Notes under the pieces: model-generated
Seen by the model: only the letters and a program-made list of their open reading frames with translations
Databases searched by the model: none
Told to the model about the DNA's origin: nothing
Position numbers and translations under genes: made by a program
Part shown: one piece after another, positions 547 through 51,002 of the stretch
Layout: each line of letters opens with the position of its first letter
Position numbering within the stretch: the stretch's first letter is position 1
Assembly: GCA_030550495.1 (NCBI GenBank)
Contig: JAUQPG010000005.1
Span: 14,520-67,521, forward strand
Direction: 5' to 3'
DNA from: Candidatus Bipolaricaulota bacterium
GTDB lineage: Bacteria > Bipolaricaulota > Bipolaricaulia > RBG-16-55-9 > DRXL01
DNA length: 53,002 nt

Positions 547-1773
547 CTACACATGCCGGAGAGCCTGCACTGGCTCTTGCTTGGACGCGATATACGCCGG
601 ATAGAGCGCCGCGAGCACTGCGACAACTTGCGCCAGCGCAAAGAACACCCCCAACGTTCTCCACGAGAACTCCGCATAGAACGTCGTCTCTATAGGGACG
701 TTGACAAGCTGCGACGCTTGCGTGATCGTGATCCCTGCGACCGAGAAATATTTGAGCAGCGCGCCGCCGATCCCAACCCCCATCAGCCCGCCAGCTGCCC
801 CCAAGATCGCGCTCTCTAAGAGAAAGAGCAAGCGAACCTCCCCAGGCGTCATCCCCAGTGCCATCAATGTCCCGATCTCGCGCACTCGTTCAAAGACTGA
901 CATTAACATCGTGTTGACGATCCCCAGCGTCGCGATCAGTATCACGACAAACGAAATGATCGCGATGAGTTGGCGCCGCGCTGCTAGAAGCTCAAAGATC
1001 GCTGCGCCCAGCTCACGCCACGTCTGCACCTCAAAGTCGTCGTCGCTCAATCTCGCCCGAATAATCTGGGCGACTGAATCAGCTTGGTCCGCGTCGTCGA
1101 GCATCAGCGTGATCTCTGTGACTTGCCCAGACATGCGCAAAAGCCTCTGCGCATCGGGTAGCGCCAACGCTAAGACAGAGTTATCTATCTGGCTGTAGCC
1201 CGTGGCGAAGATCCCCTTGATCTCGACGTCAATGGAGTTGAGCGCCCCCTTAGGGGTCGTAGCGACCAATGTCAAGAGATCGCCGACACCAATGTGCAAA
1301 TCCTTGGCGAGTTGTGTCCCGATCAGCGCATAGCCGGGCTTGTCTGACAGATACTCCCCTTGGACGATCTTCGTGGCAATGATGCCATCGCGTTCTGCTT
1401 GGGGATCGAAGCCCAATCCCAATACCCCTAAGCTCTCGCTGCCAGTACTGATAATCACAGGGAAGCGCAGCCTGGGGAAGACGCCTTTTACTCTGGGAAG
1501 CTCAGCGAGCTTCTGGATGACGCTCTGATAGTCTTTGATAGCGATATCCACGGGCATGAGCCGTGATTTCTCTTGGTAGCCGCGCGCGTGAATTTGAATG
1601 TGTCCAGTCTGTGCTTTGATAAAATTATCTGTGAACTGCTTATCTACCCCTTGGATGAAGCCGTAGAAGAAGAGCACCAATACCAATCCCAGCCCGATAG
1701 CGACGAACGTAATCGTACTGCGGCGCTTGTTGCGCAGGAGATTGCGCGCAGCAAGCTTGAAGAAAACCCACAT
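547..1773 (-). CDS. ABC transporter permease, LolC/E / FtsX / MacB family
   Basis: Motifs LAARNLLRNKRRS and NTMLMSVFERVREIGTLMALG; 4-TM layout with a large extracytoplasmic loop; ends PVQALRHV. Confidence 0.9.
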   Translation of the reverse strand: MWVFFKLAARNLLRNKRRSTITFVAIGLGLVLVLFFYGFIQGVDKQFTDNFIKAQTGHIQIHARGYQEKSRLMPVDIAIKDYQSVIQKLAELPRVKGVFPRLRFPVIISTGSESLGVLGLGFDPQAERDGIIATKIVQGEYLSDKPGYALIGTQLAKDLHIGVGDLLTLVATTPKGALNSIDVEIKGIFATGYSQIDNSVLALALPDAQRLLRMSGQVTEITLMLDDADQADSVAQIIRARLSDDDFEVQTWRELGAAIFELLAARRQLIAIISFVVILIATLGIVNTMLMSVFERVREIGTLMALGMTPGEVRLLFLLESAILGAAGGLMGVGIGGALLKYFSVAGITITQASQLVNVPIETTFYAEFSWRTLGVFFALAQVVAVLAALYPAYIASKQEPVQALRHV

Positions 1774-1797
1774 GACACATCGAGTGTACCAAATATC

Positions 1798-1826
1798 GAA
1801 GAAACCGGCGACTAAAGTCGCCGGCT
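1798..1826 (-). terminator. Intrinsic terminator after rplM
   Basis: Minus strand GCCGGCGAC-TTTA-GTCGCCGGT followed by TTCTT. Confidence 0.65.
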
Positions 1827-1872
1827 CATCAACAAGATGTGAACGTCCGGTACACCCTGGGTGAGTGGGCGT

Positions 1873-2316
1873 CTACACCTCTATGGGCTGAGGATTCTGG
1901 GCTTGATGAGGATGCTCCGGCCCGGGATAGACCTTGAGCTTCTTCAGCATCCGCCGACCAAGCACCGACTTGGGGAGCATGTTCTTGACAGCTTCTTCGA
2001 TGGGCTTGGTCGGATGTTTTTCTATAAGCTGCTCAAAGGTCCACTCCCGAATGCCCCCAGGATAGCCCGAATAGTGAAAGTATTGTTTCTGCTCACGCTT
2101 CTTCCCCGTCACCTTGATCTCTTTGGCGTTAACGACAACGACATAGTCCCCGGTATCGACGTGCGGGGTGTATTCGGGTTTATGCTTGCCCATTAAGATC
2201 TTAGCGATCTGCGACGCTAGGCGTCCTAGGGTCTTCCCCTTGGCGTCGATGAGCACCCAGCGGCGCTGAAATCTCTTGCCTAAGTCTTCTCGTTTCATCA
2301 GAGTCGAATGTTGCAT
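1873..2316 (-). CDS. rplM: 50S ribosomal protein L13
   Basis: [16 protein letters not shown]...[17 protein letters not shown]...YSGYPGG. ATG 2316 has SD GAAGGAGG. Confidence 0.97.
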
Positions 2317-2389
2317 ACGCTCCTCCTTCAAGAGCATTGTTGCTTGCTGGGGCTGCCCTGCCCACTTGCAGGGAGCTGTCGAATGTGCT

Positions 2390-2418
2390 ATCATAACGCA
2401 CTACAGGGCAAATTGCAA
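2390..2418 (-). promoter_or_regulatory. Sigma70-type promoter for rplM
   Basis: Minus strand TTGCAA-17 nt-TATGAT. Confidence 0.65.
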
Positions 2419-2434
2419 AGAGCGTTACTATCCC

Positions 2435-2463
2435 TTGACAGGAAAGGGCCTATATTTTATAAT
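2435..2463 (+). promoter_or_regulatory. Consensus sigma70 promoter of the ribosomal superoperon
   Basis: TTGACA (2435-2440)-17 nt-TATAAT (2458-2463). Confidence 0.85.
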
Positions 2464-2550
2464 AGCCCACACTAGGGATTAGGTTTGCCCTAGAGGTTCA
2501 TTGCCTTTTCCCAGCGTTGCCAAGCAACCTAGTTAGGTAAGGAGTTTACT

Positions 2551-2949
2551 ATGCCGACACTCAATCAGCTGGTGCGCTATGGGCGCACACGGATCAAGAA
2601 GATCAACCGGCGCTCGCTGGCGCTGGAGCACTGCCCGCAGAAGCGCGGGGTCTGCGTGCGCGTCTTCACTAAGACGCCCAAAAAGCCCAACTCGGCGCTA
2701 CGTAAGGTCGCCCGCGTGCGCTTGAGCAATAAGCAGATGGTCACCGCCTATATCGGCGGCGAGGGCCATAACTTACAAGAGCACTCGATGGTGCTCGTGC
2801 GCGGGGGCCGCGTGAAAGACTTGCCCGGCGTCAACTACCATATCATCCGCGGGGCCCTCGATGCCGCGGGCGTCGAAGGCCGCAAGCAAGGGCGCTCCAA
2901 GTACGGCGTCAAGCGGAGCGCAGCCAGCGCCAGAGCTGCCGCCAGCTAA
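2551..2949 (+). CDS. rpsL: 30S ribosomal protein S12
   Basis: MPTLNQL...[11 protein letters not shown]...GGRVKDLPG. Confidence 0.99.
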
Positions 2950-2964
2950 CGGAGCGGATCCTTT

Positions 2965-3444
2965 ATGACTCAACACGTGCTAGATCGCGTGATCCCAGGG
3001 CGGCCCGTCCCCCCAGATATACGCTACGGGAGCCCTATCGTCGAAAAGCTCATCAATTACGTGATGCGCGAGGGCAAGAAGTCGCTCGCGCGCCGCATCG
3101 TCTATAGAGCGTTCGATATTATTCAAGAGAAGACGGGTGAGAACCCTCTAGAAGTCTTCTTCAAGGCGATGGCCAACTGTATGCCCAAATTGGAGACACG
3201 CTCGCGCCGCGTCGGCGGGGCGGCCTATCAGGTCCCCTACGAGGTCGAAGAAGACCGCCAAAGGACATTAGCGCTGCGCTGGATCGTCAATGCGGCCCGC
3301 GAGCGCGGCGAGCACAGCATGGCGGAGCGGCTCGCCGCTGAGATCTTAGATGCCTCCAAAGGCCAAGGTCAGGCTGTAGAGAAGAAGAATGAGACCCATC
3401 GCATGGCCGAGGCCAACCGCGCCTTCGCCCACTATCGCTGGTAA
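2965..3444 (+). CDS. rpsG: 30S ribosomal protein S7
   Basis: [12 protein letters not shown] and [15 protein letters not shown]; N-terminus is atypical. Confidence 0.98.
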
Positions 3445-31677: not shown

Positions 31678-31715
31678 AAGGTGCTCGCCCCTTTTTGGCA
31701 ATTCTAGAGAGGGGA

Positions 31716-31753
31716 CTCTGGAGGTGAGGGCCTAGGAGCCCTCACCTCCAGAG
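31716..31753. terminator. Strong hairpin between oppA and oppB (attenuating or mRNA-stabilising)
   Basis: CTCTGGAGGTGAGGGC-ctagga-GCCCTCACCTCCAGAG, a perfect 16-bp stem with a weak U-tract. Confidence 0.6.
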
Positions 31754-31761
31754 GGACTCTG

Positions 31762-33741
31762 TTACTTAAGCTGGACGTAGCTCATCATGCCGTTCGTGCC
31801 CTGGATACCGTCGAAGACCTTCTCGTAGGGCATGTGATCGCCCACCAAGACATCGGCGCGGAAGGCCTCATAGAGTGGGGCGTTGAAGAGCGGCACATAG
31901 GGCAGCTCCTCGGAGAGCATCTCCTGCATCTTAAACGCCAGCTCTTTGAGCTTGGGTTGCTCGCAGGCCTTCTCGAACTCCTCGGCGAGCTTGTCGTACT
32001 CAGGGTTATTGTACCCTTGCGGGTTGAAGCCGCCCAGGCCCGAGTTGCGGCTGTGGAAGAAATCGACCAGGTAGCTGGGGAACAAGCCGCCCAAGCCCCA
32101 GCCCAGGATCCACGCGTCGAACTTCTGCTCATCGAAGACGCGGTTGGAGATCGTATTGAACCCGGTCAGGTTGACCTTCACGGGGATGCCGATCTTGTTA
32201 AGCCGCTCCTCGATGTGCAGGGCGAACGTAGCGCGCAGCGGGTCATAGCCCTGGTGCGGCGCCAACAGCTCAAACGGCGCGACGGCCTTGCCCTTGTACT
32301 TGAGGCCGCGTCCTGGGGTGACCTTGTTGCCGGGGATATCGACCTTGGGCTCGACGTCCCAGCTGAAGCCGGCCTGCTTGAGCAGCTTAATAGCTAAATC
32401 GGCCTTCTCCGCTTCCTTGAGACCCTTGCCGTAGGTCTTCACGTTGGGGTTGTACCAGGCGGTGTTGACCGTCGGCACGATGCTGTAGGTAGGGATGGCC
32501 AGGCCAGCCAGGAGCTGCTGGGTGACGAACTCGCGGTCGATCATAATAGAGACTGCCTGGCGGAACTCCTTCACGTTGAAGGGCTCGCGGCGCAGGTTGA
32601 AGCTCATGTAGTACAGGCCGTTGCCGGGGTTCTCCGCGATGCCCACGCCCTTGGCCTCGCGCAGCTGCTTGCGGAAGCCCGCCTGCACGCCCAAGGGGTT
32701 GAGCAAGAAGTGAATGTCGCCCTTGATGAGCGCCGCGACGGCAGTCGCCTGGTCGCCGTAGATGCGCCACTGCGTGGCGTCGACAAACGGACCGGAGGTC
32801 AGCTCCAGGCGCACCGTGGGCTTATCTTTGTCGAGAATAGCCGTGCCGGGGTCGCCATCATAGGGCTGAGGATCTTTGGTTGTATGGGTGTACTTATAGA
32901 CGCCGGGCTTCTCTTCGGTGTAGCCGCCAGAGTAGGGCCGGACGCTCTTGGCACCATAGAAGTAGTGATTCTTGTTTGCGCTAGACTCGGCAAATGCCCC
33001 AGGCTCCCACTTCTGGAAGAGCCACCCACCGATCACGGGTTCATCGTCGCCCTTGTGCTCATAGAGGGCCTTGATGGGATCCTTAGCTTCGGCAGCGGCC
33101 TTAAACTTCGGCTCCCAGTACGCCTTGCTGATGATCGGGGCGAAGAGCAACCCCTGGTCCCAATCATCGTAGCTGCACTGGGCCTTCAGATAGAACTTCA
33201 CCGTATACTTATCTACGACCTCAGCGCGATCGAAGAAGTCGGGATTGATCGTCCCTGGCCAGTTACCGCCCATCTTGATGGGGTCAATGCCCTTGTAGAG
33301 CTTGCCGCCAATGGCGTTGAACGTGAACGCCACATCTTCAGCGGTGAGCTCGCCGACTTCCTTGCCGGTCTTGGGATCGAACCACTTGATGCCCTTCTTG
33401 ATCTTGATGGTCGCGGTCTTGTCCGGCCCGATGGTGATCATCTTCTTGGCTTCTTCTTCGGTGCTGGCATCAGCAATCCCGGGGACGTAATCGAAGAACT
33501 TATCCGAGAGCCCAAATAAGCTCGGACCCCACCCGTTGAGCCGGACGTAGAAGTTCCACACCGTCGCCTTCGGCCCTAAGATAGCCAACGTATTTAAGCT
33601 CGACAGATCTTCGAAGATCGCGAGCTTGTAGATCTTCTGGGCCTGAGCCTGGACGACCGACTGAGACTGACTGGACAGCACAGCCCCGATGCAAAGCGCC
33701 AACAAAGCAACAATGGTAATGAGCTTGATATGTTTAAACAT
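31762..33741 (-). CDS. oppA: Family 5 extracellular solute-binding protein (OppA/DppA)
   Basis: Signal peptide; LTAEDVAFT, FNLRREPF...FRQAVSIMIDRE, YNNPEYDKL, EELPYVPL; strong SD. Confidence 0.92.
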   Translation of the reverse strand: MFKHIKLITIVALLALCIGAVLSSQSQSVVQAQAQKIYKLAIFEDLSSLNTLAILGPKATVWNFYVRLNGWGPSLFGLSDKFFDYVPGIADASTEEEAKKMITIGPDKTATIKIKKGIKWFDPKTGKEVGELTAEDVAFTFNAIGGKLYKGIDPIKMGGNWPGTINPDFFDRAEVVDKYTVKFYLKAQCSYDDWDQGLLFAPIISKAYWEPKFKAAAEAKDPIKALYEHKGDDEPVIGGWLFQKWEPGAFAESSANKNHYFYGAKSVRPYSGGYTEEKPGVYKYTHTTKDPQPYDGDPGTAILDKDKPTVRLELTSGPFVDATQWRIYGDQATAVAALIKGDIHFLLNPLGVQAGFRKQLREAKGVGIAENPGNGLYYMSFNLRREPFNVKEFRQAVSIMIDREFVTQQLLAGLAIPTYSIVPTVNTAWYNPNVKTYGKGLKEAEKADLAIKLLKQAGFSWDVEPKVDIPGNKVTPGRGLKYKGKAVAPFELLAPHQGYDPLRATFALHIEERLNKIGIPVKVNLTGFNTISNRVFDEQKFDAWILGWGLGGLFPSYLVDFFHSRNSGLGGFNPQGYNNPEYDKLAEEFEKACEQPKLKELAFKMQEMLSEELPYVPLFNAPLYEAFRADVLVGDHMPYEKVFDGIQGTNGMMSYVQLK

Positions 33742-33830
33742 ATCACAACCTCCTTTGCTGATTTAGTGGTGTCTTGCTTGCTGAAGAAAAAGGCTTAGAC
33801 GCTCTCCCCAGTGAGTTGACATCACCTCCT

Positions 33831-34400
33831 TTAAAATCTTCCTGGTGATACACGATACACCACCATGATGCTGCCTTTCATGGGGCTGTCTTGCACGACC
33901 TGTGTCCAACACGGTTGTTCGATCCAGCACGTTGGTGACGGTGGGCTAGCAGACCAGAGCCAGAGAGCAGCAAGGATCGCTGCTGCGGCCGCAGCCCCTA
34001 CAGCTCCCCACGCAAAACGCCGCCACCAGCTCTGTTCTTCTCTGGGATGCTGGCGCGCAGAACTGAGCAAACTCCAGCGGCGTGCCTGTAGGTATGCCAC
34101 GCGCTCTTGACAACGGGCACACGTCAAGACGTGCATGGCGACGTCGGAGCGCGTCCAGCGTGGGACACGTCCGCTCAAGAATTTCTGGAACGCTTGCTCA
34201 TCGCGGAAGGTCGCCCCAACGCGCCCCGCCCCAGGACTGTCCAGCAGCCTATTCGCCACGTATGCTCGCAGAACTTCTTCGCTTGGGTGATCAGGGTACT
34301 CAAGGCCCCGGAGACCTGCAAAAAGCTCGGCAAACTCAGCGAGCTTCTCCGTGTCCAGCTCGTCCTCGTAAGGCGGGTGCGGAGAGTACTTAGTGTCCAT
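33831..34400 (-). CDS. Zinc-finger (zf-HC2/ZAS) anti-sigma-factor-like membrane protein
   Basis: HPSEEVLRAYVANRL...VAMHVLTCARC (Hx3Cx2C), then TM FAWGAVGAAAAAAILAALWLW. ATG 34400 has SD GGAGG. Confidence 0.65.
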   Translation of the reverse strand: MDTKYSPHPPYEDELDTEKLAEFAELFAGLRGLEYPDHPSEEVLRAYVANRLLDSPGAGRVGATFRDEQAFQKFLSGRVPRWTRSDVAMHVLTCARCQERVAYLQARRWSLLSSARQHPREEQSWWRRFAWGAVGAAAAAAILAALWLWSASPPSPTCWIEQPCWTQVVQDSPMKGSIMVVYRVSPGRF

Positions 34401-34845
34401 ATGAGACCTCCGTGCGGGGGATAAGGGATGCTGAGGCGTAGAGCTGATTATACAACTCTTTAATCTTCTCTTTCTCGCGGGTGGGATTGAACTGACGCCC
34501 CACCAGACGAAAGACATGCTCCCAACTGAGCCGAGTGCCCGCGAGACGCTCTATAGTCAGATCGCGCATACGGACGCGCCCTTCCGTGATCTCGCGCACG
34601 AGCTGCTCGCGCTTATGCGGGTCGAACTCCGAACTCGCATAGTGGCTGAATAGATAGACTAATAACCCGCGCACGACGTTGGGATCGAAGCGTCGCTTCG
34701 CCTCAGCGAAGACGAACCACCGACGCGCCTTCTCCAGCTCACCGTCTAACGAGAGCAAGTCTTCCACCATCTCCGGAGGTTCGTTGGTGCACCGTAAGAT
34801 GTTCTCAGCATACGCTAAGCGCGCCAACTCAATCCGGATCTCCAT
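34390..34845 (-). CDS. Hypothetical helical protein coupled to the anti-sigma-like gene
   Basis: 151 aa; overlaps the downstream gene by 11 nt; no clear family. Confidence 0.7.
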   Translation of the reverse strand: MEIRIELARLAYAENILRCTNEPPEMVEDLLSLDGELEKARRWFVFAEAKRRFDPNVVRGLLVYLFSHYASSEFDPHKREQLVREITEGRVRMRDLTIERLAGTRLSWEHVFRLVGRQFNPTREKEKIKELYNQLYASASLIPRTEVSYGH

Positions 34846-34953
34846 TAATTATATTCACCCCTCGCGAAATCCTGACAGCTTCGGACTGTAAGCACACGAA
34901 AAGCCTTATTCTATCAAGATTCCTTTGACCTTGACTCGTCTTTTCCCCATTCC

Positions 34954-36216
34954 CTAGCGGCGTTCGTTCATGAGCACTGAGACAGAACCATCCCCTTGAT
35001 TGACGACAGCTAAGTCGGGATCACCGTCTCTATCGAAATCTCCAGCGACAATGCTCACCGGCAGCGACCCAACAGGAATAGTGATCGCTTTATTCGGCTG
35101 CACGAACTTTCCTCGCGAGGGATCGACCAAGAACTTTGCGCCAAACCCTCCAAAGCCATCGTTGAAATGCACGGTCACCGTGTTGCTTGCCGAATTCGCT
35201 GCAGCCAGATCAAGCCAACCATCCCCGTTGAAATCGCCCACGATCACGGCTCGTGGGTCTAGACCCCCTGTGGGCAGCCCTTGAGGCTCGTCAAACTTTC
35301 CTTGGCCGTCTCCAGCAAAGACTAGGAGACGGTCACTCTCGGGATTGGCCGTCACTAAATCCCCGAACGTATCGTTGTTGATATCGGCGATTTCGATCCA
35401 CGCTGGCGAATCCCCACTATAGAGCCCAGCTGCCAGGCGCTGCGCTATGACAAAACTTCCCGCGTTATCCCCAAGCAACGTAGCAGCTCGGCCAATGCTG
35501 CTGACGACGGCGTCTAGCTTCCCGTCACGATTGAGATCATAGACAGCGAGGGATTGCAAGCTCCCGCCGACAAACGTCTCGCGCACGCTCCAGCGATCTA
35601 TCTGGTCTGTCCCATTATTGATAAAGACGTAGACGCTCCCTTGAAGATTAGCACAGATAATATCAAGACGACCGTCGTTGGTGAAGTCCGCGATAGCGAC
35701 GGAACTGACGTCGCGTAGGCCGCGGGGAAGATCGCGGCTGGAAGCGGGCCGGAGCAACTCCTTCTCGTCCCCCCATAAAACCCAGAAGTTGCCCCCTGTA
35801 GGATAAGCGAGCACAACGTCAAGAAACCCATCTCTATTGAGATCACCAAGTGCTAAGACCTTACCACGGGGGACCTTGACTGTATCGTCGGCCTTGACTG
35901 AGTTAAATTCTACTAATTGTGGGGCACGAAAGATCTGTTGTGGGCTCCCAAGAGCAATGGCGACATAAAGTCTCTTAATATCTTTCTCTTCGTCTGTAAC
36001 GAGTAGGGTTGAAGTGATGATATCAAGAAGTCCATCGCGGTTGACATCGCCCAAGGCAATGGCCGTCGTGCCTGAGCCTATTAGAATAGATTGACTCTGT
36101 TGGAACTTCACAGTAGGGTTGCTGAAGGCTTCTATCCCTAGCAAGAGCACAAAGCTGCCTATGAGTATTAGCTGCCGTGTTCGGGTATCTCTGCGCATCG
36201 TGAGAAATTGTACCAT
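34954..36216 (-). CDS. Secreted FG-GAP/VCBS repeat beta-propeller protein
   Basis: Seven DxNxDGxxD-type repeats, e.g. GDVNRDGLLD, GDLNRDGFLD, DFTNDGRLD, GDFNGDGWLD. Confidence 0.9.
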   Translation of the reverse strand: MVQFLTMRRDTRTRQLILIGSFVLLLGIEAFSNPTVKFQQSQSILIGSGTTAIALGDVNRDGLLDIITSTLLVTDEEKDIKRLYVAIALGSPQQIFRAPQLVEFNSVKADDTVKVPRGKVLALGDLNRDGFLDVVLAYPTGGNFWVLWGDEKELLRPASSRDLPRGLRDVSSVAIADFTNDGRLDIICANLQGSVYVFINNGTDQIDRWSVRETFVGGSLQSLAVYDLNRDGKLDAVVSSIGRAATLLGDNAGSFVIAQRLAAGLYSGDSPAWIEIADINNDTFGDLVTANPESDRLLVFAGDGQGKFDEPQGLPTGGLDPRAVIVGDFNGDGWLDLAAANSASNTVTVHFNDGFGGFGAKFLVDPSRGKFVQPNKAITIPVGSLPVSIVAGDFDRDGDPDLAVVNQGDGSVSVLMNERR

Positions 36217-36283: not shown

Positions 36284-36410
36284 TTCTGAAGGACAATCTT
36301 CGGGTCGTCGGAGGAGGTGATGGTGGGAGCGTTTAAAGAGATAGCTCACGTGGGTCGTTGCGGGGGAGTAGGCGTAGTTTACATCTCTATGCAAAAGGAG
36401 GTTCTCTCAT

Positions 36411-37604
36411 ATGTCTTCCACATATAAAGTTTTGGCAATCGTTGTCAGCTTGGCTGCGTTGCTCTTTCTGCCCTTGGTGAGCGCGCAAGAGCAGCAAGAG
36501 CTCAATCCGGTGAGCAAGCTCGATCTTGGCGGGTCCAAGGTCAACGGCTTCGTCTTCACGGCAGATGGGAAATTTGCCTTCGTCTCTGTCAGTGTCGGGC
36601 GCGAGAGCTCAGTCTTTCTTGTAGCGGCCAGCACAACGGATACCACAAAGTTTTACGGCAAGAAAGTGCGCGGCTGCCCCATTGCCGGAGAAGTCTGCCT
36701 AGCCCAAGTTCGCGGGAATATCAACCCCCAAGACTTGGCGTATAACGAGGAGAAGAAAGTGCTCTTCATACCAGGCTATGACGATGACACACTCTATATC
36801 TCGCAGGTGGCCTTTGACAAAGACGGCAACCCCACCGAAGCCAAGGCAGCCAAGAAAGTCGCTGTAGGGGCTGGCCCGCGAGCAGTCGCTGTCAACGCCG
36901 CTGGCACCCGGGCCTTCACGGTGAACGAACGCGAGCACACCGTCAGCGTCGTGGATATTTTGTATAAGGATAACGCCCCCGACAAGGGCGAAGTGATCGC
37001 GACGATCAAGCTCGACCCCGACGAAGAGAACCCCACATATCCTAGCCCGGCAGATATTGCCATTGTGGGCGATAGAGCCTTCGTCGTCAACACCGACACA
37101 TGGAAGGTCTGCGAACTTAAGAACATCAACGCGGACAGCGAGAAGGTGAAGAAGGGCGAGGAGAAGATTGAACTTGGCGCGTGCGTCGATACCGGGGCAT
37201 ATCCACGTGCTATGGCCATGCTTGGGAACACGGCGTATGTGATCAACAGTCTTGGGGACAGCGTCAGTCAGCTCTCCTTGGAGCCGTTGGAGAGCAAAGC
37301 AGAAGTCCCCGTCGGCGATGCTCCGCGGGGGATCGCCACAGACAATCAGTGCTGGGTTGTGGTGACCAATACGGGGGTAGATAACCCCGAGGGTGGCCGC
37401 CCTAGCCTCTCCTTCTTGAGCGCGGATTTGAGCAAGTCTCTCACGCTCTCCATCACAGCAAAGGAGCCAGGAGATCCGATTGTGCCAACTCAGGTGCAGG
37501 TCCTCGTCAAAGAGGGCGCTAAAGAGGTGTGGGTATTGAACATCGGAGCTCGCGGAGAGATCTTAATCTACCCTGCGCCGGAGGCTGTCCAGAGCTGTCC
37601 GTAA
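36411..37604 (+). CDS. Secreted YVTN/YncE-type beta-propeller protein
   Basis: Signal peptide; repeats VAVGAGPRAVAV...AFTVN...TVSVVD, DTGAYPRAMA, VPVGDAPRGIA. Confidence 0.85.
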   Translation: MSSTYKVLAIVVSLAALLFLPLVSAQEQQELNPVSKLDLGGSKVNGFVFTADGKFAFVSVSVGRESSVFLVAASTTDTTKFYGKKVRGCPIAGEVCLAQVRGNINPQDLAYNEEKKVLFIPGYDDDTLYISQVAFDKDGNPTEAKAAKKVAVGAGPRAVAVNAAGTRAFTVNEREHTVSVVDILYKDNAPDKGEVIATIKLDPDEENPTYPSPADIAIVGDRAFVVNTDTWKVCELKNINADSEKVKKGEEKIELGACVDTGAYPRAMAMLGNTAYVINSLGDSVSQLSLEPLESKAEVPVGDAPRGIATDNQCWVVVTNTGVDNPEGGRPSLSFLSADLSKSLTLSITAKEPGDPIVPTQVQVLVKEGAKEVWVLNIGARGEILIYPAPEAVQSCP

Positions 37605-37706: not shown

Positions 37707-37782
37707 GGGCCCGTAGCTCAGGGGTCAGAGCAGTCGGCTCATAACCGATCGGTCGCAGGTTCGAATCCTGCCGGGCCCACCA
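37707..37782 (+). tRNA. tRNA with CAT anticodon, probably tRNA-Ile2 (lysidine-modified)
   Basis: Cloverleaf GGGCCCG...GTCGG-CTCATAA-CCGAT...GGTTCGAATCC...CGGGCCC-A-CCA. The paired G1-C72 and absence of three GC pairs in the anticodon stem argue against fMet; the acceptor stem is Ile2-like. Confidence 0.92.
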
Positions 37783-45529: not shown

Positions 45530-45559
45530 AGTATACTATACTTGGCCGGACTCCGTCAA
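45530..45559 (-). promoter_or_regulatory. Internal promoter for the second permease pair
   Basis: Minus strand TTGACG-18 nt-TATACT, directly after the terminator of the binding-protein gene. Confidence 0.55.
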
Positions 45560-45564
45560 GCGCG

Positions 45565-45605
45565 AAAAAACGCGAGGGCCGGAGGCACCTCGCCCCCGGC
45601 CCTCG
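45565..45605 (-). terminator. Intrinsic terminator after the second binding-protein gene
   Basis: Minus strand CGAGGGCCGGGGGC...GCCTCCGGCCCTCG followed by CGTTTTTT. Confidence 0.75.
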
Positions 45606-45626: not shown

Positions 45627-47474
45627 TTAGCCCTTACTGAGCCAGTAGACATACGTGCCAGGATAGGCCGGATTGTAGAACCAGCCCTTGACCCAGACCT
45701 GCTCGTAGCGCCGCACCTGGAGCTGGATGTTCTGGATGTTGATCGCGTACTCCACGGCCAGGCGGTTGAGCTCGAAGTAGATCTTCTCGGCGCGCCCGCC
45801 CTTCTTCTGATCCGGCTCCTTCTTGGCCTTCACGACCAGGTCATCGAAGAGATCCTGGAGCGTGGGATACTTCTTAGCCTCAAGGAAGGTAGCATAGACC
45901 GGCTTGAACTCTACGTCCTTGAGGGCATCGAAGTTCTGGCCGATGGCGAAGGACCCGGTGCGGAACATATACGGATGGACCCAGTTGTGCGGGTGCGCAT
46001 AGTCTTCAAGCCAGCCGACCCAGAAGACCGCCAGCTCCCCTGCGTCCATAGCCTTCAAATATGTCGGCCAGGGCAGGTCGAGCACGTCCACGGAGAAGAT
46101 CGGTCGCCCGGCGCGCTTCTTGTTCATCTCTTCAAGGTTACGCTCGAGCATCTCCGCGGCGAAGCGGCGCGCTATGTTGCCCTGATTGAACGTCAAGACC
46201 AGGCGCATGCCGTCCGACCAGAGCTTGCCGCCCCAGGCAGCTTTCAGCTCCTCTTCGCACTTGGCCAGGCTGAACTCATAGCCCTTCTGCTCGGGGTTGT
46301 AGCCCAAGCGGCCCTCAATGATCACGCCATTGATGGGCTTGGCTTCACCCAGCCAGGACTCCTTGATGTATGTTGCCGTGTCGAAGCAGTAGTTGAGAGC
46401 CCGGCGCAGGTTGAGGTCAAGCAGGAGATCGGGCTTATCGGCGCCGCCGAGCTTAGGCATGTAGGCGCTGCCCTCCTTCACCTTGAAATTGATGAAGGCG
46501 CTCTGCATGACCGACCCCGGCAGTGGGCCATGCATGCGGGCCTTGCCAGCCTTGACCAAGGGCTCCATAGCCGCTACGAACGGGCGCGGCACATCGATAG
46601 AGTCGGCATCGCCGGCCTCGAACATCGCCAGCCGCGTGCCCCACTCCGGCACGACCTTCCTGATGTAGTTCTTGATGATAGCTGGGCGCTTCGCTAGGCC
46701 GCCCCAGTAGGCGTCGTTGCGCTCCAGAATAAGCTCTTTGCCCTTGTCCCACTTCACCAGCTTATACGGGCCGGTGCCGTTGGCAACGTCAAAGAGCTTG
46801 GAATCTTCCGCCTTGGGGTCCCACCACTTGCGCCAGTTGTCGCACTTGCCGTCCCAGTCGCCGCGGGCGATGGCCCACTCCTTGTCAATAATGGACGTCC
46901 AGCTCCCGGCGAGAATCTGCAGGAACGGCCCGAAGGGCGAAGCCAGCTTGATCTCGACCGTATCAGGGCCGGTGACCCGGATCGCGTTAAGCACTTGCTG
47001 ACAGGCTTGAGCATCACCCACCTTCTTAGCCAGCTCATCGATCGAGGCGACGTCAAGGACGTGCTCGATGATCATGTGGATGGGGCCGCCGGAACGATCT
47101 TGCAAGAGCGCTCGCTGGAAGCTGTAGGCCACGTCCTCAGGGGTGAGGTCGCCACCTTGATGGAATTTGACGCCCTTGCGAATCTTGAACGTGTAAGTGC
47201 TGCCATCGGGAGAGACCGTCCAGCTCTCCGCGAGCATCGGCACGAACTTATCAATTGCCTCGCCGTCGTAGAAGACCAGGGTCTCGTAGATGTTGAAGAT
47301 CGCCGTCGCGCTCGCTGTGTCATAGTGCCAGGCTGGATCGAGGGTCTCCAAATCGCCAATGACTGCCTCAATATATGTATCCGGGTTCTTCACTTGCTGT
47401 GCGAGACCGCTCGTCACCCCGAGAACCAACACCAGACTTAGGGCTAAAGCTCCCCATCTCCAAACTGCCTTCAT
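45627..47474 (-). CDS. Family 5 extracellular solute-binding protein (DppA/OppA)
   Basis: Signal peptide; TLDPAWHYD, IYETLV, LAESWTVSPDG, GTGPYKL; strong SD. Confidence 0.93.
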   Translation of the reverse strand: MKAVWRWGALALSLVLVLGVTSGLAQQVKNPDTYIEAVIGDLETLDPAWHYDTASATAIFNIYETLVFYDGEAIDKFVPMLAESWTVSPDGSTYTFKIRKGVKFHQGGDLTPEDVAYSFQRALLQDRSGGPIHMIIEHVLDVASIDELAKKVGDAQACQQVLNAIRVTGPDTVEIKLASPFGPFLQILAGSWTSIIDKEWAIARGDWDGKCDNWRKWWDPKAEDSKLFDVANGTGPYKLVKWDKGKELILERNDAYWGGLAKRPAIIKNYIRKVVPEWGTRLAMFEAGDADSIDVPRPFVAAMEPLVKAGKARMHGPLPGSVMQSAFINFKVKEGSAYMPKLGGADKPDLLLDLNLRRALNYCFDTATYIKESWLGEAKPINGVIIEGRLGYNPEQKGYEFSLAKCEEELKAAWGGKLWSDGMRLVLTFNQGNIARRFAAEMLERNLEEMNKKRAGRPIFSVDVLDLPWPTYLKAMDAGELAVFWVGWLEDYAHPHNWVHPYMFRTGSFAIGQNFDALKDVEFKPVYATFLEAKKYPTLQDLFDDLVVKAKKEPDQKKGGRAEKIYFELNRLAVEYAINIQNIQLQVRRYEQVWVKGWFYNPAYPGTYVYWLSKG

Positions 47475-47580
47475 GGCGCTACCTCCTTTTTTGGTAATGG
47501 TGTGGGTGATGGAAAAGCGTTAGATCTTTGGACTCGACAACCACCTCCTTTTAAGCCACCCTTATATGGGCTTTTTCGGC

Positions 47581-47618
47581 TGTAACTTATGTTACACCTA
47601 GGGCCGAGGGATTGTCAA
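47581..47618 (-). promoter_or_regulatory. Promoter with a palindromic operator over the -10 element
   Basis: Minus strand TTGACA-18-TAACAT; inverted repeat TGTAAC-TTAT-GTTACA at 47581-47596. Confidence 0.6.
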
Positions 47619-50927: not shown

Positions 50928-51002
50928 GGGCCGTTAGCTCAGTGGTAGAGCACCTGCCTTTTAAGCAGGGGGTCGCAGGTTCGATCCCTGCACGGCCTAC
51001 CA
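50928..51002 (+). tRNA. tRNA-Lys (TTT)
   Basis: GGGCCGT...CCTGC-CTTTTAA-GCAGG...GGTTCGATCCC...ACGGCCT-A-CCA. Confidence 0.96.

Follow-up and report, generated by a model that had tools for sequence, protein, structure and literature searches.

In the cry3A leader of Bacillus thuringiensis, a stabilizing Shine-Dalgarno sequence (STAB-SD) without a start codon acts as a 5' stabilizer and blocks RNase J1 (PMC4113751, which names Agaisse & Lereclus 1996 and Mathy et al. 2007 as the primary papers). Related 5' stabilizers that consist of polypurine or ribosome-binding-site sequences are described for SP82, aprE, gsiB and hbs in Bacillus (PMC2358910). As these two sources present them, such elements combine a Shine-Dalgarno (SD) sequence that lies within the 5' untranslated region (UTR), far upstream of the true ribosome-binding site, with full complementarity to the 3' end of 16S rRNA, a lack of initiation and a very abundant protein product. 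Our analysis of a 53,002-nucleotide stretch of DNA from a Candidatus Bipolaricaulota bacterium (contig JAUQPG010000005.1, positions 14,520 to 67,521), called the window below, produced leaders that resemble these elements, as judged here from sequence alone. Each leader carries an upstream SD sequence, termed SD1, that lacks a usable start codon, followed by the true SD sequence, termed SD2.

The leaders differ from STAB-SD in several respects. Complementarity to 16S rRNA reaches 11-12 nucleotides (nt) (GGAGGUGRU), and the element is used in a regulon-like manner at many genes per genome and throughout an uncultured phylum. It is also tied to exported proteins, chiefly the solute-binding proteins (SBPs) of ABC transporters. 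Finally, the sequence features of a STAB-SD are found here in an order without detectable RNase J.

Two leaders in the window precede genes for SBPs of the SBP_bac_5 family, each of which heads a set of Opp/Dpp-type ABC transporter genes. SBP gene 1 (31762-33741, minus strand) encodes a protein of 659 amino acids with an N-terminal signal peptide (Pfam E = 1.1e-45), and SBP gene 2 (45627-47474, minus strand) encodes one of 615 amino acids (Pfam E = 8.8e-66). In copy 1 of the leader, which reads TTTTAAAGGAGGTGATGTC...AAAGGAGGTTGTGATATG on the minus strand, the start-less SD1 (AAAGGAGGTGAT, 33821-33832, minus strand) is complementary at 12 of its 12 bases to the 16S rRNA 3' tail, whose end in the source genome is GGATCACCTCCTTTCT. 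It is followed by a spacer (33757-33820, minus strand) that contains the short "middle boxes" singled out by the initial annotation, and by SD2 (AAAGGAGGT, 33748-33756, minus strand), located 7 nt before the ATG at 33741-33739. Copy 2 likewise consists of a start-less SD1 (AAAAGGAGGTGGT, 47540-47552, minus strand), in which the twelfth base shown, a G at position 7 of the core, is able to form a G-U pair with the 16S tail, and of SD2 (AAAAGGAGGT, 47481-47490, minus strand), again 7 nt before an ATG (47474-47472). Both double-SD arrangements lie on the minus strand where the initial annotation had placed them. Its range of 60-75 nt between the two SD sequences holds for copy 2, where the GGAGG-to-GGAGG distance is 62 nt, and is exceeded by copy 1 (76 nt). 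Also as it had described, SD1 has no well-spaced start codon in either copy; an ATG lies 2 nt after GGAGG in copy 1 and a TTG 3 nt after it in copy 2.

A third leader lies on the plus strand, where SD1 (GGAGGTGAT, 36313-36321) is found 98 nt before the ATG at 36411 of a gene for a secreted beta-propeller protein (36411-37604, plus strand; Pfam Lactonase-type propeller). The source genome comprises 1.63 Mb in 66 contigs, with 56% G+C and an estimated completeness of 92%.

SD1 is retained in related leaders, as the initial annotation required of its conserved blocks. The consensus RRGGAGGUGRU is present in all 59 leaders examined from five gene families, whose protein identities range from 96% down to ~33%, and the flanking sequences diverge. 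By family, SD1 occurs in 11 of 11 orthologous leaders of copy 1; in 11 of 11 leaders from the genus, and in five more distant ones, of copy 2 (protein identity 60-96%); in 13 of 13 of the third window gene; in 7 of 7 of an SBP_bac_3 amino-acid binding protein; and in 12 of 12 of a secreted 508-amino-acid protein. The word G[GA][AG]GGTG is located 70-126 nt before the start codon in 59/59 leaders; this search word fixes positions 0-6 of SD1, only positions outside it are informative, and orthologous leaders are not independent observations. At position 7, A is found in 37/59 leaders and G in 22/59, but a pyrimidine never, and position 8 is T in 51/59. Both preferences fit pairing with the ..AU.. 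of the 16S tail if G-U pairs are allowed. SD2 lacks this extension, carrying G at position 6 in only 2/59 leaders. Predicted duplex energies with the 16S tail are -20.2 +/- 1.4 kcal/mol for SD1 and -14.2 +/- 1.5 kcal/mol for SD2, and SD1 is the stronger of the two in every one of the 59 leaders.

The positions of start codons suggest that SD1 does not direct translation initiation. No ATG, GTG or TTG is found 3-14 nt after GGAGG in 41/59 leaders, and neither a start codon nor a reading frame is conserved. Most remaining leaders carry TTG or GTG 3-5 nt after GGAGG, and the other start codons are specific to one family; in three of the groups, 0 of 7, 11 of 12 and 5 of 5 leaders are start-free.

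In the source genome, 34 intergenic GGRGGTG sites form the expected peak 10-19 nt before start codons and 17 form a second one at 70-99 nt, with few sites between. The second peak accounts for 17 of the 31 intergenic sites that lie at least 30 nt upstream. Before counting, sites with a reverse complement within 50 nt were removed, because several of the GGRGGTG sites that precede genes turned out to lie in the arms of hairpins or terminators (31716-31753 is one such case). After this filter, GGAGGTG is located 50-115 nt upstream of 15 genes, and 11 of the 15 products are exported-like, compared with 329 of 1598 genes overall (odds ratio 10.9, p = 1.5e-5). Inspection by eye shows Sec or Tat signals in three others of the 15. 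The enrichment persists when only the 615 genes with an upstream spacer of at least 80 nt are considered (11/15 versus 146/615, p = 5.5e-5). Among controls, the reverse-complement word precedes exported-like genes in 1 of 9 cases, and a distance of 116-250 nt yields 0 of 2. Moreover, the exported share grows with the length of complementarity, from 43% for GGAGG to 58% for GGAGGT and 73% for GGAGGTG; for CCTCC it is 25%.

Proteins encoded behind SD1 include two SBP_bac_5, one SBP_bac_3 and one Peripla_BP_6 protein, a DUF11 surface-repeat protein, a cohesin/dockerin protein, a multihaem cytochrome c, two proteins with an IPTL-CTERM motif and several secreted proteins without a Pfam family. One set of genes, at 21155-25365 of contig C66 in genome G000 and in its relatives (L073-L090), comprises tandem paralogues of a secreted protein of ~500 amino acids without a Pfam family. 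These paralogues are found in 18 of 18 genomes of the family, and the first gene carries SD1. The protein may be a major envelope protein.

The double-SD arrangement is detected in most of the genomes searched in the phylum. The pattern GGAGGTGRT-N50-80-RGGAGG-N5-10-ATG has 534 matches (150 listed, 384 unlisted) in 116 of the 121 genomes searched, and a reversed control pattern yields ~29 matches by hand tally. Among the 57 matches listed for seven distant genomes, 42 precede an N terminus that satisfies the signal-peptide rule, a raw share uncorrected for background. Judged from their first residues only, many of these 42 proteins resemble the binding proteins of ABC transporters. Of the other 15 matches, 10 have SD1 inside an open frame of at least 120 codons and are probably chance matches within coding sequence.

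In the 42 distant leaders (L092-L147), SD1 is followed by a T-depleted purine box at positions 9-22 after the first G. G occupies position 9 in 25 leaders and positions 13-15 in 20, 24 and 26; T is found at positions 13-15 in 3, 0 and 2; and A is found at positions 19-22 in 17 to 22. The gene families of the source genome carry a GGGAG or GGGGGA box at variable distance behind SD1.

In the literature on STAB-SD and on Shine-Dalgarno sequences in Bipolaricaulota, supplements aside, we found no published description of this family of leaders with a start-less upstream SD sequence. When the window was searched with Rfam 15 at the gathering threshold, only two tRNAs were detected (37707-37779 and 50928-50999, both on the plus strand), and a search of 20 leaders at E <= 1 returned a single chance match (E = 0.39). 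The proposal of an undescribed leader family in the initial annotation thus stands, and the family extends well past the two copies on which it was based, to about 14 leaders in the source genome and to 116/121 genomes of the phylum.

SD1 is probably a functional leader element that is complementary to 16S rRNA, and the evidence agrees best with a site at which ribosomes dock through the 16S tail. Ribosome binding and mRNA stabilization by SD1 are what we infer. More tentatively, and with slightly less than even confidence, we favor a main role as a STAB-SD-like 5' stabilizer. A 30S subunit or 70S ribosome would dock on SD1 through 11-12 base pairs (bp) with the 16S 3' tail and would not initiate, since the pairing is presumably too tight for initiation and its position with respect to any start codon too unfavorable. 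The parked ribosome would shield the leader and the mRNA behind it from decay that depends on the 5' end. In this way, the mRNAs of abundant exported proteins would be long-lived and translated heavily, the effect that STAB-SD has for cry3A.

Because RNase J was not detected, the nuclease held off would be either an RNase E/G that scans the mRNA from its 5' end or else RNase Y. RNase Y is present (622 bits), as are an RNase E/G-type enzyme (333 bits, 404 amino acids) and the termination factor Rho. In Escherichia coli, scanning of RNase E from the 5' end is blocked by obstacles, according to the part of this literature covered by PMC9943677. The proposed arrangement is similar in that a bulky object in the 5' region would protect downstream sites and an RNase E/G is encoded. 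However, the obstacles treated in that source are those of E. coli, and scanning by the 404-residue enzyme is putative.

The transcription context of many leaders is consistent with a 5' stabilizer. By a simple in-house promoter rule, promoter-like sites occur within 100 nt upstream of SD1 in 23/56 leaders, compared with 6.9 +/- 2.1 in shuffles. The distance from the end of the -10 element to SD1 has a median of 27 nt (interquartile range 21-44.5, full range 4-70), which places SD1 ~15-40 nt from the predicted transcript start in these 23 leaders. In the SBP_bac_3 family, SD1 lies 9-13 nt after TATAAT in 7/7 leaders. For copy 2, a promoter-like TTGACA-18-TAACAT (47589-47618, minus strand; 10/12 matches) is the best site in the 16.7 kb scanned, puts SD1 ~30 nt from the predicted 5' end and has its TTGACA and -10 elements kept in orthologues. 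A terminator-like hairpin of 15 pairs with a T-run follows SBP gene 2 (45573-45605, minus strand), and a second promoter-like site (45530-45559, minus strand) lies downstream of this hairpin and before the permease genes. Thus, the binding protein seems to be transcribed separately from the permeases, and SBP gene 2 is, by its predicted signals, self-contained, with a promoter, an SD1 leader and a terminator of its own.

Copy 1 has a different context. Its SD1 directly follows the TAA stop codon (33831-33833) of an upstream open reading frame (ORF) at 33831-34517, which is kept in relatives, where it ends in ..RF* and shows synonymous changes. Under the stabilizer mechanism, SD1 of copy 1 would stand at the head of the SBP segment within a longer transcript. 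The ORFs at 33831-34517 and 34390-34845 (minus strand), upstream of SBP gene 1, have no Pfam match; they overlap by 128 nt, and one of their start codons is therefore probably wrong. At the other end of the segment, in the gap that separates SBP gene 1 from the permease gene, a perfect hairpin of 16 bp (CTCTGGAGGTGAGGGC / GCCCTCACCTCCAGAG, loop TCCTAG; 31716-31753, minus strand) without a U-tract is a candidate 3' barrier for the SBP mRNA segment. A joint from 31711 to 31753 that skips 41 nt is found in metatranscriptome contigs of two runs; it may stem from the way in which the inverted repeat was assembled or from a variant without the hairpin.

Several points weigh against SD1 as a 5' stabilizer of the STAB-SD type. 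The initial annotation had proposed that RNase J is blocked and had suggested confirming that the enzyme is encoded, but RNase J (TIGR00649) exceeds the 400-bit cutoff in 0 of 35 genomes of the order (61-96% complete), the best match being 61 bits and that of the source genome 20.5 bits. SD1 of copy 1 is intercistronic and is not close to a predicted primary 5' end, and no promoter-like site is found at 33836-35656 on the minus strand. In predicted accessibility, SD1 has no advantage over SD2 (unpaired probability 0.43 and 0.40, respectively). A pure 5' stabilizer also does not need the sharp preference for 70-99 nt, which suits a hand-over of ribosomes from SD1 to SD2 at least as well. In addition, the genome-wide association with exported proteins depends on gene calls from a crude in-house script (1598 genes, covering 91% of the genome) and on a signal-peptide rule that is likewise crude.

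The RNA data call for similar caution. Contigs from two sediment metatranscriptome runs match the stretch with few differences (one match, for instance, spans 834 nt with 0 differences). The contig depth summed for run X1 is 785-1122 for SBP gene 1 and 167 upstream of it; 1076-3057 for SBP gene 2, ~177 for the permease genes and 156 upstream; and ~610-636 for the third gene and 80-146 beside it. The three SD1-led genes have the highest contig depths of the 16.5 kb examined, but contig depth is a poor measure of expression, DNA is possibly present in the libraries and run X2 is less clear-cut. The raw-read runs X4 and X5 gave only 22 and 2 reads from ~3% of each run, too few for 5' ends. Adapter-tagged contig ends, such as one at 47493, are single observations.

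The hand-over of ribosomes is an alternative favored by the spacing, although we regard it as doubtful. SD1 would serve as a standby or pre-loading site: with SD2 and the start codon still occupied, it would catch the following 30S subunit and later pass it on. Initiation on the mRNAs of very abundant exported proteins would increase, and any effect on stability would be secondary. The distance from SD1 to the start codon is tightly clustered, both in the 17/31 sites at 70-99 nt and in that none precedes a secreted-like gene beyond 115 nt, and 70-99 nt corresponds to approximately two 30S footprints end to end. The spacers are A-rich (32% versus 22% in the genome) and have no significant structure. 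In copy 1, SD1 abuts the upstream stop codon, where terminating ribosomes could be retained. Standby sites such as those of MS2 coat, tisB and the lpp 5' UTR likewise provide an upstream site, apart from the start codon, at which a 30S subunit can wait, and lpp mRNA of E. coli encodes an abundant exported lipoprotein, so that there is a precedent (PMC5924895). However, the sites treated in that source are unstructured, single-stranded stretches that rely on ribosomal proteins S1 and S2 and are not strong SD sequences, and the lpp 5' UTR is 38 nt long, whereas SD1 lies 54-126 nt before the start codon. Furthermore, a 12-bp duplex of -20 kcal/mol, stronger than that of the true SD in 59/59 leaders, should hold a subunit and not release it. 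Nor is a standby site obviously needed, since SD2 is a strong site in its own right and no sequestration of it is predicted (unpaired probability 0.40).

In a more ambitious proposal, SD1 and the purine box would form a dedicated, phylum-wide "export-mRNA" leader module, a ribosome-parking signal by which exported-protein mRNAs would belong to one post-transcriptional regulon. The module would load ribosomes in advance and pass them on to the true SD, perhaps in connection with membrane targeting or through recognition by a specific factor, and would be more than a generic stabilizer, in a lineage without RNase J. We consider this proposal unlikely.

It is improbable that the recognized partner is a dedicated factor, such as an RNA-binding protein, a small RNA (sRNA) or a small structured sensor, that binds SD1 and the purine box and co-regulates an "exported-protein" regulon, with the resemblance to an SD sequence being partial or exploited for competition with ribosomes. 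Such a factor would account for the non-random sequence after SD1 in 42 distant leaders and for the coherent gene set, which comprises solute-binding, surface-repeat, cytochrome and IPTL-CTERM proteins. However, the conserved core is the exact complement of the 16S tail, including the wobble-compatible A or G at position 7. CsrA is a known protein that binds GGA motifs, and its target leaders, such as that of B. subtilis hag, have dual GGA sites, one of which overlaps the true SD. The leaders described here are similar in having two GGA-containing sites, one overlapping the true SD, but their conservation goes beyond GGA to the full 16S complement, and CsrA (PF02599) has 0 matches in the source genome, at 92% completeness.

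A structured sensor is further disfavored by the lack of an Rfam match and of a supported consensus fold. A conserved secondary structure was rejected as a candidate, because RNAalifold applied to 11 copy-2 leaders gave only -1.3 kcal/mol and no convincing covariation, with SD1 invariant. Single folds of four leaders are no better than those of shuffles (z from -0.15 to +1.39; copy 1, z = +0.36). In copy 1, a weak local hairpin (CUGGGGAGAGC / GCCUUUUUCUUCAG) is predicted in the spacer. A switch between anti-SD and anti-anti-SD pairings was considered and rejected: CACCUC is found downstream of SD1 in some orthologues, yet anti-SD-like words occur in only 5/56 spacers. In six orthologues of the third gene (L050, L053 and L056-L059), a small hairpin, AAGGTG-CTCT-CACCTT, lies just upstream of SD1 and pairs an SD-like with an anti-SD-like word; the latter could alternatively pair with SD1.

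The middle boxes, which the initial annotation had regarded as possible conserved targets of an sRNA or a protein, did not hold up in this role. The boxes (TCTAA.., CTTTT.C.TCA and ACACCAYTA) are present in the sequence as originally written, and in copy 1 they correspond in part to the 3' arm of the weak hairpin. The spacers of copies 1 and 2 align locally with a score of 24, a marginal value when compared with 16.4 +/- 3.3 for dinucleotide shuffles, 69 of 2000 of which score as high, and the pair ties for ranks 2-4 among 91 such pairs. The boxes are not kept in orthologues, and even the copy-2 orthologue of the closest relative, with 96% protein identity, has a different spacer. A score near that of shuffles, coupled with the divergence of the spacers, suggests that the boxes are largely compositional.

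A very short upstream ORF (uORF) driven by SD1, in which a translating or stalled ribosome rather than a parked one regulates or stabilizes the mRNA, is very unlikely. An ATG is indeed located 11-12 nt after GGAGG in 6/11 copy-1 orthologues, where the ORF encodes MGDSV* in four, MGDAA* in one and 14 codons in one. In addition, positions 7-9 of SD1 read ATG or GTG in 25/42 distant leaders and, by reading, in 8/11 copy-1 and 11/13 third-family leaders. However, such an RTG lies inside the predicted rRNA duplex and is separated from GGAGG by only 2 nt, a spacing too short for initiation. The 41/59 leaders without a start codon at 3-14 nt likewise argue against a uORF. The mini-ORF is confined to the six copy-1 orthologues, its ATG has been lost from copy 1 of the window, and ORF lengths and peptides differ between families, so that neither the conserved start codon at a working distance nor the conserved frame of a leader peptide is seen. 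By reading, five copy-1 orthologues (L032, L033, L037, L038 and L040) have two overlapping mini-ORFs just after SD1. An MSIHGG*-like peptide is encoded by the one that begins at an ATG or GTG 2 nt beyond GGAGG, and MGDSV* by the one whose ATG lies 12 nt beyond it; in the copy of the window, neither is intact.

Scarcely credible is a role of SD1 as a DNA-level signal, for example as an operator or as an element in the initially transcribed region of a promoter type common to these genes, since, although SD1 lies shortly downstream of predicted promoters (median 27 nt after -10) and before a coherent gene set, the distance from -10 varies from 4 to 70 nt, copy 1 has no nearby promoter, the association holds in the sense orientation only (reverse-complement control, 1/9) and both the sequence and its A/G variation match rRNA pairing.

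If SD1 is a 5' stabilizer on which ribosomes park, start-less SD sequences would be a systematic and conserved means of controlling the expression of exported proteins across an uncultured phylum, above all of ABC-transporter binding proteins, and would be more than a peculiarity of a single Bacillus toxin gene. RNase J would then not be required for the principle to work, and the nuclease that is held off by a 5'-bound ribosome would become testable outside Firmicutes. SD1 would also provide, for the design of expression in thermophile-like hosts, a compact part of natural origin and, for Bipolaricaulota metagenomes, a simple sequence marker of highly expressed surface and transport genes.

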